A program made the position numbers. Positions 48,001 through 51,000 of a stretch of 64,000 nucleotides of DNA are shown piece by piece. The DNA is from an uncultured Methanosarcinales archaeon (GTDB lineage: Archaea > Nanobdellota > Nanobdellia > Woesearchaeales > CAYMBN01), in NCBI GenBank assembly GCA_964388715.1, contig CAYMBN010000003.1, positions 1 through 64,000 of the forward strand, given 5' to 3'. Position 1 is the first letter of the stretch. Each line of letters opens with the position of its first letter.

Positions 48001-51000
48001 TTCAACATGAAGTATTTCCTTAACTTCGTTAAGATTATCACTTAATTCTGGAAATATTGGTTTTAGATAGTCAGCATGCCATTTGCAAACATCAAATAAA
48101 GATAACTTCCAACCATATTTGTCAATAAATGAAAGAGCTCTTCGTAAGATAACCCTTAAATTATAGCCTCCGCCTGTGTTACTAGGAAGAGCACCATCAC
48201 TTAATGCAACTAGTAATGTTCTAGCATGTTCCCCAATAGAATATAATGCTGCTAAAGGAAGTATCTTTTTTCTTAATTCTTCAACACTTAAATTAACTTT
48301 TTCTGCAACATCTTGCCATGCTTTATCAATATCTTCAACTTCGTCAACATTAAGGTAAGAAGCATAAGGTAAAAATTTTTTCATTAATTTTTTATCAACT
48401 TTGATTCCTGTTGCGTTTTTTAGTTTTTCGCAAACAGTTGGGAATACTGCTTCATAACTTGTTGAGGTTGCTTTTGCAAACCATGCATTACGTTCATGAC
48501 CCATGCCCATGTCAAGTACCTTAAGTTTTAGTTCTTTAGGACCATCTTTTGTTTGTTCGTATAACATGTAAACTTGATTACCTAATTCAAGACCTCTGCT
48601 GAAAAACTCCATGCAAGGACCAAAGTTTCCACCACCTGCCCATGCATCTTCATGGAATGTTATTTCTTCTTTAGCTAAACCTAATCCTTCAATTAACCAA
48701 TTGTAAATGTCAGTGAAAACTTTATCCTGATCCCATTCTTCTTTAGGAACAAATTGATGTTGACCAATCATTACAAAACCGGTGAAATGTGCACCTGTAA
48801 TACCAACATTATCTATGTCATTGAATCTTAAACAGAATTGCGGGACAACTAACGGGTTTGCAGGAGGAGCAACTTCTCCAGACACAACATAAGGTTGGAA
48901 ATCATAGATAGAAGCTTGTACAAAGTCTGTATCATCTCGCCAACGTGCTACTACTGGATATCTTTTTATTGGTGTATAACCCCATTTGTTGAATAAATCA
49001 GCAAACTTTTTCCATACTCCAATATAATCCATGTCATTCTTTGCAGGACTATTTCCTATAAATTTAAAACCTCCTGCACATGCAGGGTCACCACAAACAA
49101 GTTGGTTTTTGTTTACTGTCCAAAAAAATGTGCCACATTTACATTGTTTTCTTTCAAAATCATGTTTTTTAAGAACATTAGTAGCATAATAAGTATCAGG
49201 ATCAAGTGACGCTTTTTTCTTGAATTCCTTTTTAACCTCTTTGTCAGATAGCATAATTATAGAGAGTAGGGTTTTTATTTATAAATCTTCTGCTGAAAAG
49301 AAAGATTAATAAACACTAGAAAGTTACTATTATTATGTTTTATCATAACCTTAATCCGGTGATTGTTAAATTAGGTTTTCTTGAGATTAGATGGTATTCT
49401 CTTGCATATATATTTGGAATTCTTTTGACTTACTTTATATTAAGGAAAATAGCAAAGCAAGGAAGGGTTAAGAATCTTACTTTGGAGAAAGTAGATGATC
49501 TTGTTGTTTACCTTACGTTAGGTTTGATTATAGGTGCAAGATTGTTTTACTTTATATTTTATAATCCAGCTTATTTTTGGACAGATCCTTTGGAAATATT
49601 TCAGATATGGCATGGTGGAATGTCTTTTCATGGTGGATTAATTGGAATGATCCTTGGAATGGTTTATTTTTCAAAGAAGTTTAAGGTTAAATTCTATGAT
49701 GTTGCTGATATTGTTGTGATTCCTGTTTCATTAGCATTGTTTTTAGGCAGAATCATGAATTTTATTAATGTTGATATGCTTGGAACTGTTAGTAATTTAC
49801 CTTGGTGTGTGAAGTATAGTGGTGTTGAAGGGTGTAGACATCCTATTTCAATATATGAGGCTTTGAAGAATCTTGGAATATTCTTTATTTTAGCTTTTAC
49901 TTATCAGAAAAAGAAGTTAAAGTCAGGCAGATTGTTCTGGTTGTTTGTGTTATTGTATGGAGTTTTGCGTTTTGTGATTACTTTTATGAGAGATGATCCT
50001 GTTTATTTTGGATTTAATATCGGACAGTGGTTGTGTTTAGTAATGATAGGGGTTAGTGTTGTTTTTCTTGTGAAGAAGAATTAGCAGCTGCAAGTTCACT
50101 AAATGTTTGATATAAATCTAGGTAACCTGTTTCTGTTATACCTTCTCCACTTGTTGACATTCTGTCAAATAACTTTTGAATTTCCTTATGCATTTCCATA
50201 ATAGCTTCAAGATTTTCTGGACTTGGTAAAATTTTTGTTCTATCATAAACATCTATCACTATATGGGGATTTCTACTACAAATAGCTAATGAATATCTTG
50301 CTTGGATTGTATCATATGATGGATTTGGCATTTTTTAGAAATTCTTTTTACTTGCTTCTTCTTTCTCTGGCGATTAATCTTTGGAGTGCGTCTATCTTTC
50401 GCATTAGTTCGAGTTTTTCTTGGTCTGCTTCAAATATCTTATTTGAAAACTTTTCTAGTGCAAAGTCTTTTTCTTTAAGGTTTCTGCTTATTGCAGTGAA
50501 CTTATTTATTTCACCTGAGAGATTTTCTATATGAGAAGAGATTGTGTTAACTTGGTTCTTTAGCTCATTGTAACTAGCAACATCTGCTTTGATTCTTTCA
50601 AGTGAATCTTTGAGTTCGTTTTCTCCTTGTTCCATCATTTGTTTTTGCATGTTGGTTTTTTGTAGTTTAAAATCTGTGATTTCTTTGTCAAATTCTTGTC
50701 GTGATTCGTTGATTTGTTTAATGATTACAGAATTGCTTGCTATGAATTCTTTTTGTTGTGACTTCATCTCTTGTAAATCTGTGTTAAATTGTTGTTTTAT
50801 GTTTGTTAATTCAGATTTAACAGGATCAAATTCTTGTTTTAAGTTAGTGATATCATTAGTTAAATTATCTATTAATTCCTTTATCTGCATTAAGTCCTTT
50901 ATCTTTTGTATCATTGTAGAAAAAAGTTACTTTTCTTCTTGTCTTCTTGTCATTCGATTGTCAGCATTACTGAATATTTTTTCAATGCAAACATCTTCTG

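Follow-up and report, generated by a model that had tools for sequence, protein, structure and literature searches.

Bacterial-type lipoprotein maturation has been described for Lgt of Escherichia coli (PDB 5AZB/5AZC), LspA of Pseudomonas aeruginosa (5DIR) and Staphylococcus aureus (6RYO), and Lit of Bacillus cereus (PDB 7B0O; PF07314; PMC8275575). According to portions of PMC13251419, the residues Y26, H103, R143, N146, G154 and R239 are absolutely required in E. coli Lgt, and E151 and E243 are non-essential. Lit of B. cereus has a catalytic dyad, His85/His153, and an essential Phe157 (PMC8275575). For archaea, passages of PMC12462473 (2025) state that no Lgt or Lsp homologues have been identified, which confirms what the initial annotation of this DNA had said of the literature, and the abstract of PMC13251419 (2026) describes Lgt as absent from archaea. 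In the sections concerned, PMC12462473 has also reported AliA and AliB (arCOG02177/arCOG02178) as lipidation components found in Haloferax volcanii, with no homology to PF01790 detectable beyond an HHpred probability of 29%. The presumed job of AliA and AliB is the same as that of Lgt, namely to place a lipid on the lipobox cysteine of exported archaeal proteins. All seven Woesearchaeota covered by Supplementary Data 3 and 1 of PMC12462473, which are genomes other than the present one, have no AliA, no AliB and 12–60 predicted lipoproteins; for 25 Pacearchaeota the supplement gives a median of 3. Parts of the same paper draw attention to archaea in which many lipoproteins are predicted and AliA and AliB are both absent, and ask what lipidates them. 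Table S3 of PMC8204110 (2021) lists, without discussion, LGT in 83% and Peptidase_A8 in 82.7% of Woesearchaeota (n = 196), and LGT in only 8% of Pacearchaeota. Discussion of Lgt or LspA in DPANN was not found in the open-access literature searched.

Here an archaeal Lgt is described which very probably works as the first enzyme of a functional bacterial-type lipoprotein maturation pathway. We observed intact genes, conserved catalytic residues, the fold, the archaeal surroundings, the distribution of Lgt and LspA, their co-occurrence, and lipobox substrates that are conserved; from these we infer that the enzyme is active, in what order the steps run and which lipid is the donor.

The lgt locus and its archaeal context

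The window analysed is a stretch of 64,000 nucleotides (positions 1 to 64,000 of contig CAYMBN010000003.1, C3 in Table 1) of assembly GCA_964388715.1, a DPANN archaeon of the order Woesearchaeales. The source assembly is metagenome-derived and consists of 1,300,152 bases in 31 contigs, with 95.75% completeness and 0.47% contamination, and archaeal 16S and 23S rRNA were found in it. The lgt gene of the window is the sole LGT match in the whole 31-contig genome.

Table 1. Positions of lgt, its upstream neighbourhood and the unlinked pathway genes (window positions unless a contig is named)
Feature	Position	Strand	Description
lgt	49335..50084	+	ATG-started ORF, 249 aa; Pfam LGT, TIGR00544
Spacer alaS/lgt	49255..49334	.	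80 bp, AT-rich, between divergent genes; sequence reading
Archaeal-type alanyl-tRNA synthetase (alaS)	46738..49254	-	TIGR03683 (A-tRNA_syn_arch) 869.6 bits, cut-off 744.7
lspA	C11:5928-6338	-	136 aa; Peptidase_A8, TIGR00077
Lit-family gene, C13 copy	C13:9048/9135-9764	+	Pfam Lit 89.9 bits; TIGR01906 78.7 (cut-off 74.8)
Lit-family gene, C3 copy	C3:71949-72626, outside window	-	Pfam Lit 57.6 bits; TIGR01906 44.5, under cut-off

The spacer between alaS and lgt is presumed to be a promoter region. TATA-like runs, TTTTTATTTATAAA near 49271-49284 and ATTAATAAA near 49306-49314, were seen in it by direct reading and are expected by chance at the genome G+C of about 31%. The AlaRS gene on one side of lgt is a marker of an archaeal contig and stands outside the lipoprotein pathway; coiled-coil proteins lie on the opposite side. 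The contig as a whole (126 kb) is rich in archaeal markers, and those within the window include L15e, proteasome alpha, RNase P component 2, exosome Rrp4/41/42, SBDS, deoxyhypusine synthase and Alba. The lspA gene lies on a different contig and is flanked by aIF-1A (about 0.8 kb away), ZPR1 and a family B polymerase. With both genes on contigs bearing archaeal marker genes, their assignment to an archaeon in the initial annotation holds.

Several genes of bacterial appearance were also seen within the window, namely four sigma-70 genes, a bacterial-type TIM, GlpX and a DnaQ-like exonuclease.

A tblastn search of the lgt loci of 30 relatives, covering 1.5 kb on each side, found none of the neighbours present here (AlaRS, an alpha/beta hydrolase and four downstream ORFs; 0/30 each). 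Since lgt, lspA and the Lit genes are, moreover, all unlinked in the genome, gene order lends no support to the pathway.

Lgt, LspA and Lit-family proteins

Lgt matched PF01790 with 228.9 bits (cut-off 24.9; E 7.4e-68; residues 8-246 on profile positions 1-239 of 240), the NCBIfam equivalog TIGR00544 with 176.2 bits (cut-off 118.9; profile positions 7-267 of 280) and E. coli Lgt 5azb with E 4.2e-35. The closest Lgt, 58% identical, is in a record titled Nanoarchaeota, and an earlier figure of 38% identity to Geobacter Lgt was roughly reproduced, with 40% to two Geobacteraceae records. With E. coli Lgt, to which it is 30% identical in the structural alignment, the window protein shares the curated equivalog family and the motifs H-G-G-L and G-R-x-G-N-F-x-N. 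Of the residues given as absolutely required in the portions of PMC13251419 cited above, the window Lgt keeps six of six (Y21, H99, R139, N142, G150 and R212, in the E. coli order). The same six are invariant across 12 of 12 published archaeal sequences, and they are kept in 36, 35, 36, 36, 36 and 36 of 36 archaeal rows, respectively. The window protein deviates at the positions of E151 (D) and E243 (T), where E is kept by 35/36 and 30/36 archaeal rows. It is shorter than its E. coli counterpart (249 versus 291 aa), and the stretch from G154 to H196 has about 19 residues versus 42 in E. coli, the median being 20 among 72 bacterial rows. An AF2 model made from a 12-row alignment (pLDDT 87.8, pTM 0.84) has the seven-helix membrane body of the solved structure, and in a Foldseek comparison with the PDB 5azb was its only significant fold match (E 6.3e-13, TMq 0.77; next match E 0.65).

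LspA matched PF01252 (Peptidase_A8) with 117.1 bits (cut-off 25) and TIGR00077 with 88.8 bits (cut-off 73.95). The bacterial motifs N-T-G-A-A-F, G-N-L-x-D-R and F-N-L-A-D-S all align with the archaeal protein, in which GNLIDR and FNLADS correspond to GNLYDR and FNLADS of the solved LspA 5dir/9emz (E ~3e-18). The two Asp in these motifs are taken by us to be the catalytic pair. The archaeal LspA has shorter loops (136 aa versus 169-188 aa in the solved bacterial chains). Both enzymes had been described initially as full-length and motif-intact, and this is upheld for Lgt by the TIGR00544 score, the six essential residues and the 5azb fold, and for LspA by the TIGR00077 score and both Asp motifs. 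They are true bacterial-family enzymes and not AliA relatives. A set of 37 membrane proteins that lack a Pfam family or have a DUF or weak match only gave no match to an AliA-named NCBIfam model, a result that proves little, and a second, archaeal-type lipidation route may exist alongside Lgt.

The two Lit homologues claimed earlier stand as members of the family at the Pfam level (cut-off 24 bits) with His, His and Phe kept, but they are far under the cut-off of the NCBIfam Lit equivalog NF051877 (41.8 and 17.1 bits versus 400). The C13 copy, which aligns with 7b0o over residues 25-231 (E 8.5e-13), has retained counterparts of His85, Asp88, Val89, Phe149, Phe152, His153, Phe157, Asn159 and Trp162; the dyad and Phe157 of the B. 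cereus enzyme are shared by the C3 copy as well. The family is much commoner in the archaeal phylum (77/101 genomes) than among control bacteria (1/10, Lactococcus), and within the order we counted it, from lists, in 67 of 79 genomes. The known reaction of Lit depends on a chain in ester linkage, and an ordinary archaeal membrane would not provide one.

Lipobox substrates

Candidate substrates were collected by crude ORF calling of our own (1335 ORFs) and a lipobox regular expression. It matched 19 of these ORFs when only the first start codon was considered and 23 when later starts were allowed, of which about 19-20 appear credible; the earlier figure of about 24 lipobox proteins is thus of the right order of magnitude. 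Among N-termini fitting the pattern up to -1, Cys was found at +1 in 19 of 245 versus a background of 1.49% (binomial p 7.9e-9), an enrichment of about 5-fold. Secreted-type domains were present in 10 of 20 scanned lipobox proteins and included a beta-propeller, cupredoxins, subtilases, PKD/Big_9 and M64. Orthologues of the beta-propeller lipoprotein were found at 30 loci (34-62% identical), of which 25 have a pattern-matching lipobox, 2 a near-lipobox Cys, 2 none and 1 is unreadable, so that the Cys is retained in 27 of 29 readable orthologues.

Distribution and descent

The distribution of both enzymes was followed in 401 genomes of the phylum, each at least 90% complete and 277 of them from the same order. 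LGT was present in 337 and Peptidase_A8 in 338 of the 401. Hand comparison of the lists gave, for the order (n = 277), Lgt in 264, LspA in 264, both in 252 and neither in 1; the 12 genomes with Lgt and no LspA and the 12 with LspA and no Lgt are tentatively attributed to incomplete assemblies. The same comparison for the remainder of the phylum sample (n = 123) gave both in 71, one only in 3 and neither in 49. Over 400 genomes, both were present in 323, neither in 50 and one only in 27. Some of the genomes of the order that bear Lgt and LspA are single-contig. Both families were absent in 4/4 archaeal and present in 10/10 bacterial control genomes. The distribution, offered as part of the novelty by the initial annotation, is partly in print (PMC8204110 Table S3); recognition of the pathway and its implications are new, as had been suspected. 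New here are the co-occurrence of Lgt and LspA in the order and the phylum, the separation of archaeal from bacterial Lgts and the conservation of the substrate Cys.

In a 108-row Lgt tree, from which L030 was left out, one branch (SH-aLRT 98) parts 36 archaeal from 72 bacterial rows. The bacterial rows, sampled with two conserved peptide patterns, come for the most part from Pseudomonadota, Nitrospirota and Thermodesulfobacteriota and include neither Patescibacteria nor Bacillota, and because of this selection the tree is compatible with a single archaeal Lgt origin and does not prove it. Archaeal Lgts group by genome family in a 29-row tree with E. coli as the sole bacterium. This archaeon, and nearly its whole order, probably inherited the pathway vertically after one old acquisition from Bacteria. 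A pairing of E. coli Lgt with one archaeal row (L004) in the 29-row tree was dropped, as it is gone in the 108-row tree.

Proposed pathway and alternative explanations

In the proposed pathway, precursors whose Sec-type signal peptide ends in L-x-[AGS]-C would be exported, and Lgt would move the glyceryl-lipid moiety of a phosphatidylglycerol-type lipid onto the thiol of Cys+1. LspA, an aspartyl signal peptidase II, would then cleave ahead of the modified Cys, and a Lit-family enzyme would probably transfer one of the chains onto the free amino group. The CarS-like and PgsA-like enzymes, encoded side by side, could rebuild the glycerol head group required by Lgt, with a GpsA-type dehydrogenase as the source of glycerol-3-phosphate.

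The genes could be an artefact, that is, the lgt and lspA contigs could be mis-binned bacterial DNA or the genes decaying relics of a recent transfer, as a 31-contig metagenome assembly and the bacterial-looking genes of the window might suggest. However, lgt adjoins an archaeal-type AlaRS on a marker-rich contig and lspA lies close to aIF-1A, the G+C is even along the whole window, the contamination estimate is low, and each gene occurs in nearly all genomes of the order, single-contig ones among them. Both reading frames are intact and free of stops, with residues obviously conserved, and portions of PMC8204110 have already reported sigma-70 genes in Woesearchaeota with mis-binning excluded. 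The contamination reading was rejected on the grounds of archaeal neighbours, even G+C, order-wide occurrence and intact frames, and an artefact of either kind is hardly credible. It is also improbable, if somewhat less remote, that the Lgt homologue serves another task, such as the modification of one dedicated small protein or of a lipid alone, while the lipobox proteins are served by another system. Sections of PMC13251419 describe divergent bacterial Lgt subgroups perhaps with other substrates, and lgt is unlinked to lspA. Against this, the window protein scores above the cut-off of the equivalog for true Lgt and keeps all essential residues, its neighbours (AlaRS and coiled-coil proteins) do not resemble a cassette, it co-occurs with LspA over 400 genomes, and the genome encodes about 20 proteins with a classical lipobox, the Cys of which is conserved in orthologues.

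A version of the working pathway in which Lgt is adapted to the archaeal membrane and draws on archaetidylglycerol for a diphytanyl- or digeranylgeranyl-glyceryl group, as inferred for haloarchaeal halocyanin, is a serious possibility with less than even prospects; its corollary is that the Lit-family proteins do something besides an O-to-N acyl shift. The host is an archaeon by its rRNA and its archaeal-type AlaRS, it has a polyprenyl synthase and lacks a PlsC-type acyltransferase and a ketoacyl synthase, and a CarS-like (CDP-archaeol synthase) gene lies directly beside a PgsA-like CDP-alcohol transferase, and within the order CarS was found in 20 of 41 genomes. Passages of PMC12462473 report a haloarchaeal lipoprotein that bears an archaeol thioether, so that archaea do have this chemistry. 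However, the mirror-image glycerol-1-phosphate backbone would lead one to expect changes near the active site of Lgt, and a comparison of 36 archaeal with 72 bacterial Lgts gave 41 columns at least 85% conserved with the identical residue, none conserved but different, and only one archaea-specific column, a Pro at E. coli position 134. The better Lit homologue (C13) keeps nine active-site or conserved residues of an enzyme whose reaction needs an ester-linked chain, and its family is widespread in the order. No G1P dehydrogenase-type, GGGPS or UbiA/DGGGPS match was obtained in the genome, which does have a GpsA-type glycerol-3-phosphate dehydrogenase, and the CarS-like gene (Pfam 104 bits) scores 123 bits with NF003114, under the curated cut-off of 148.

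Eight of 41 genomes of the order gave matches to GGGPS, but these were partial throughout, none covering more than about 100 of the 226 profile positions or exceeding 25 bits, and we do not count them as GGGPS.

Lipid donor and significance

Unlike the hosts of bacterial Lgt, this archaeon has no detectable route to either lipid backbone. The initial annotation had held that the cell seems unable to make its own lipids, which is right for the missing backbone enzymes and has to be qualified for the CarS-like, PgsA-like and GpsA-type genes and the polyprenyl synthase. The cell cannot build a lipid backbone and must obtain its lipid from outside. An Lgt active site without changes, a Lit dyad that is intact and the GpsA-type gene together point towards a bacterial-type, ester-linked lipid; we lean to ester-linked, glycerol-3-phosphate-based chains, at about even odds, over chains of the archaeal ether type, which are less likely. 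More tentatively, Woesearchaeales may have full bacterial-style lipoproteins, on which Lgt attaches an ester-linked diacylglyceryl group from a glycerol-3-phosphate-based phosphatidylglycerol and Lit makes the lyso-form. If so, a large archaeal order keeps bacterial-type or mixed membrane phospholipids; it would obtain these by scavenging, perhaps from bacterial hosts, and the CarS-like, PgsA-like and GpsA-type enzymes would give them new head groups. This would be a natural crossing of the lipid divide.

For this large and globally distributed archaeal order, the premise of archaea without Lgt and Lsp, as worded in the abstract of PMC13251419 and in passages of PMC12462473, is false, and the lipoproteins of Woesearchaeota lacking AliA and AliB are probably lipidated by the Lgt pathway. 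Lgt recognises one defined part of the lipid and Lit another, and active sites that are intact in both thus report indirectly on membrane chemistry. The membrane chemistry of uncultured organisms could be read from them, with a bearing on the lipid divide and on a possible life on bacterial hosts. The question of lipidation is open to a direct test, for which three cloned genes and synthetic lipobox peptides would suffice, and LspA inhibitors are possible selective probes in enrichment cultures.

One of the lipobox proteins is PLD-like and combines a PLDc_2 with a lamin-tail domain. By its domains it could be a lipid-scavenging phospholipase, which is an attractive reading, and an extracellular nuclease would fit equally well.

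Lipoprotein enzymes

The product of lgt aligns with positions 1-239 of the 240 in the Pfam LGT profile (PF01790; 228.9 bits) and scores 176.2 bits against TIGR00544, the NCBIfam equivalog for true Lgt, above the cut-off of 118.9. Solved E. coli Lgt (5azb) is matched in sequence at E 4.2e-35 and is the sole significant PDB partner (E 6.3e-13, TMq 0.77; runner-up E 0.65) of an AlphaFold2 model built on 12 aligned published archaeal sequences (mean pLDDT 87.8, pTM 0.84). According to PMC13251419 (mBio 2026), E. coli Lgt has an absolute requirement for Y26, H103, R143, N146, G154, and R239; R73, G98, G104, D129, E151, F211, and E243 are dispensable. 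In an alignment with the E. coli protein that took in three sequences from unpublished genomes, the required residues are present in the window Lgt as Y21, H99, R139, N142, G150, and R212, together with Y208 (=Y235) and R219 (=R246); two dispensable residues are replaced, E151 by D147 and E243 by T216. The six required residues are invariant in 12 of 12 published archaeal rows; in a larger alignment with 36 archaeal rows, each is retained in 35 or 36.

LspA is encoded by a single-copy gene and matches the solved chains 9emz, 5dir, and 6ryo at E ~3e-18. Its NTGAAFS, GNLIDR, and FNLADS motifs align opposite the same motifs in those chains; the two Asp of the latter two motifs are the catalytic pair. 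Among the neighbours of lspA are aIF-1A at about 0.8 kb, a ZPR1 homologue, and a family B DNA polymerase. The initial annotation had described both enzymes as full-length and motif-intact; the equivalog scores and motifs bear this out. Its two Lit homologues fared less evenly. The protein on contig C13 aligns over residues 25-231 with B. cereus Lit 7b0o (E 8.5e-13) and has equivalents of His85, His153, and Phe157, of Val89, Phe149, and Trp162, which PMC8275575 gives as conserved in Lit, and of Asp88, Phe152, and Asn159. Only His, His, and Phe are retained in the second protein, which is encoded past the window's end. Family membership at Pfam level and the catalytic His/His/Phe stand, but on the NCBIfam Lit equivalog the two score 41.8 and 17.1 bits, far short of its cut-off of 400, and so they are named Lit-family rather than Lit. 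No Lnt-like protein was found among the 104 membrane proteins scanned.

Features of contig C3 (the window is its positions 1-64,000) and of other contigs (C) of the same genome; L, positions in cut-out loci
Feature	Location	Strand	Remarks
lgt	C3:49335-50084	+	ATG-started ORF, 249 codons
lspA	C11:5928-6338	-	136 aa; Peptidase_A8 117.1 bits; TIGR00077 88.8, cut-off 73.95
Lit-family gene 1	C13:9048-9764	+	Profile scan of membrane proteins
Lit-family gene 2	C3:71949-72626	-	Same scan
PgsA-like and CarS-like pair	C1:176932-177970 (L039:101-1139)		Profile scans
GpsA-type NAD(P)H glycerol-3-phosphate dehydrogenase	C1:112590-113585 (L198:1498-2493)		Full-length; NF000942 251 bits, cut-off 257
PLD-like lipobox protein	C10:22365-23720 (L061:9151-10503)		Two PLD-like domains, lamin-tail domain
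Tandem paralogous lipobox proteins	C5:49959-53116 (L084)		Three; 343, 337, 345 aa; no Pfam family
Triose-phosphate isomerase, adjoining class II GlpX fructose-bisphosphatase	C3:3928-6677	-	TIGR00419 (general bacterial-type) 204 bits, cut-off 130.6; NF003302 55.8, cut-off 132
Sigma-70/RpoD family genes	C3:16360-21492	-	Four in tandem; 286, 296, 370, 683 aa
ORFs upstream of sigma-70 genes	C3:21521-30901	-	Four; 286-1061 aa; no NCBIfam match
DUF1385 membrane protein	C3:52079-52918	-	290 bits; 2 kb downstream of lgt
HemK2/MTQ2-type methyltransferase	C3:53636-54172	-	Close to DUF1385 gene

Archaeal origin of the DNA

The DNA that bears lgt is archaeal. The assembly (31 contigs, 1,300,152 bases) is rated 95.75% complete with 0.47% contamination. 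Its 16S rRNA gene is archaeal (1381 bits over the full model) and adjoins a 23S gene, likewise archaeal, that is represented by its 5' part. When 58 window ORFs were searched against NCBIfam models, the ORF adjoining lgt proved to be an archaeal-type alanyl-tRNA synthetase (TIGR03683, 869.6 bits, cut-off 744.7), and others matched L15e, archaeal proteasome alpha, RNase P component 2, exosome Rrp4/41/42, SBDS, deoxyhypusine synthase, and Alba. G+C is uniform along the window (0.25-0.34). The nearest Lgt among species-representative genomes, 58% identical, is in a record titled Nanoarchaeota archaeon, and five further close relatives are in records titled Candidatus Woesearchaeota.

Distribution and descent

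Among 401 sampled genomes of the phylum, all at least 90% complete, PF01790 was found in 337 and PF01252 in 338; both families were absent from 4/4 archaeal and present in 10/10 bacterial controls. Two lists compared by hand gave Lgt and LspA each in 264 of the 277 genomes of the same order (both in 252, one only in 24, neither in 1), and Lgt in 72 and LspA in 73 of the 123 in the rest of the sample (both in 71, one only in 3, neither in 49). Six unpublished genomes, each with Lgt and LspA, are included; without them the order has 258/271 per enzyme and both in 246. No p-value is attached because related genomes are not independent. The Lit family occurs in 77/101 phylum genomes, 67/79 in the order by our own count from the lists, and 1/10 bacterial controls. 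Three to six LGT matches per genome were seen in some phylum genomes (G196, G027, G058, G186, and G375); the extra copies may be cassette-type Lgt paralogues.

In a careful 29-row tree the archaeal Lgts group by genome family, with families f4, f55, and f53 each on one side of a branch. A quick 108-row tree combined 27 archaeal rows from the genome-sample search, 9 from records with archaeal titles, and 72 bacterial rows, leaving out three unpublished sequences and one that had been mis-cut; a branch with SH-aLRT 98 separates all 36 archaeal Lgts from the bacterial rows. This fits a single acquisition with vertical inheritance thereafter. Bacterial rows were chosen by two conserved peptide patterns and best score, without Patescibacteria or Bacillota, so monophyly falls short of proof. 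One Lgt within the Woesearchaeal clade, 37% identical to the window's, comes from a record titled uncultured Methanosarcinales archaeon (L120) and may stem from mis-binning of its contig or from an independent transfer.

According to PMC13251419, which searched RefSeq genomes for PF01790 in February 2021, Lgt is 'absent from archaea', in line with what the initial annotation had said of the literature. For Lgt and Lsp, PMC12462473 reports that no homologues have been identified in archaea. Table S3 of PMC8204110 (Front Microbiol 2021) lists LGT in 83% and Peptidase_A8 in 82.7% of 196 Woesearchaeota, 7.8% and 4.4% of 90 Pacearchaeota, and almost no other archaea; the word lipoprotein appears nowhere in its main text. 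PMC12462473 also describes several archaeal genomes with many predicted lipoproteins yet without AliA and AliB, the archaeal lipidation components, and concludes from them that further pathways await discovery. Its Supplementary Data 3 gives arCOG02177 and arCOG02178 as 0 in 7/7 Woesearchaeota, and Supplementary Data 1 gives these seven 12-60 predicted lipoproteins (29-51% of secreted proteins) and 25 Pacearchaeota 1-11 (median share 13%). A search of the open-access literature found no paper discussing Lgt or LspA in DPANN or Woesearchaeota. The observation first annotated is confirmed, and its reading as a bacterial-type lipoprotein pathway is supported at the genomic level. The enzymes belong to known bacterial families and are ordinary within them. 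Unusual are the archaeal host, the near-universality in a large archaeal order, the conflict with two recent specialist papers, and the implications that the intact lipid-reading sites have for the membranes of these uncultured cells.

Predicted lipoproteins

ORF calling was crude (longest non-overlapping frames, 1335 ORFs), and the lipobox pattern applied is that known from Gram-positive lipoproteins. It fits 19 ORFs at the first start codon and 23 with later starts allowed, of which we would discount three or four; the roughly 24 proteins annotated earlier are close to this. Among N-termini fitting the pattern up to -1, Cys stands at +1 in 19/245, vs 1.49% Cys overall (p 7.9e-9). Ten of 20 lipobox proteins compared with Pfam have domains typical of export (beta-propeller, two cupredoxins, Laminin_G_3, peptidase M64, two subtilases, Big_9/PKD, PLD-like plus lamin-tail) and ten have no family. 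Orthologues of the beta-propeller lipoprotein occur in 35/61 genomes of the order. In 30 loci inspected, 34-62% identical and with the genome's own counted in, a pattern-matching lipobox is kept in 25; in two more the hydrophobic core is immediately followed by Cys (LFS-C, STA-C), two lack Cys, and one is unreadable. Since the remaining signal peptide sequence is not conserved, selection acts on the lipobox Cys. The PLD-like lipobox protein could be a surface phospholipase scavenging lipid, or an extracellular nuclease. Three tandem paralogous lipobox proteins lie on contig C5.

Lipid donor

Six-frame search of the genome gave no UbiA/DGGGPS, PcrB/GGGPS, Fe-ADH_2-type G1P dehydrogenase, ketoacyl synthase, or PlsC-type acyltransferase, upholding the earlier claim of missing backbone enzymes, and PlsY was not found among the 104 membrane proteins. 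A polyprenyl synthase is present. A CDP-alcohol phosphatidyltransferase (best model pgsA, 78 bits, cut-off 109) directly precedes the CarS-like gene (NF003114, 123 bits, cut-off 148); with the GpsA-type gene, these look like a head-group salvage line in a genome without detectable backbone enzymes. The backbone lipid would be imported from outside the cell, and the glycerol head group required by Lgt could be rebuilt within it.

For the donor we lean, at about even confidence, to an ester-type lipid with a bacterial-type backbone. An alignment of 36 archaeal with 72 bacterial Lgts has 41 columns in which both sets conserve the same residue, and none in which each set conserves a residue of its own; the Lit dyad is preserved, and an ester is needed for the reaction of Lit; and PlsC-type acyltransferases (PF01553) occur in 26/41 genomes of the order and 0/4 archaeal controls, with no convincing GGGPS seen in the sampled genomes of the order. 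An ether-type donor is a lesser but serious possibility, given that CarS, an archaeal-type enzyme, is found in 20/41 genomes of the order and that the window's genome itself has no acyltransferase. Some other donor seems improbable. The PF01553 acyltransferases of the order are often tandem pairs of about 215-235 aa.

Other genes of the window

The triose-phosphate isomerase and GlpX genes are likely of bacterial origin and lie on the same archaeal contig as lgt. A DUF1385 gene and a methyltransferase gene follow lgt. Two of the four sigma-70 genes exceed the RpoD_Cterm cut-off (365 and 377 bits vs 354); such genes in Woesearchaeota are already in print, as PMC8204110 records.
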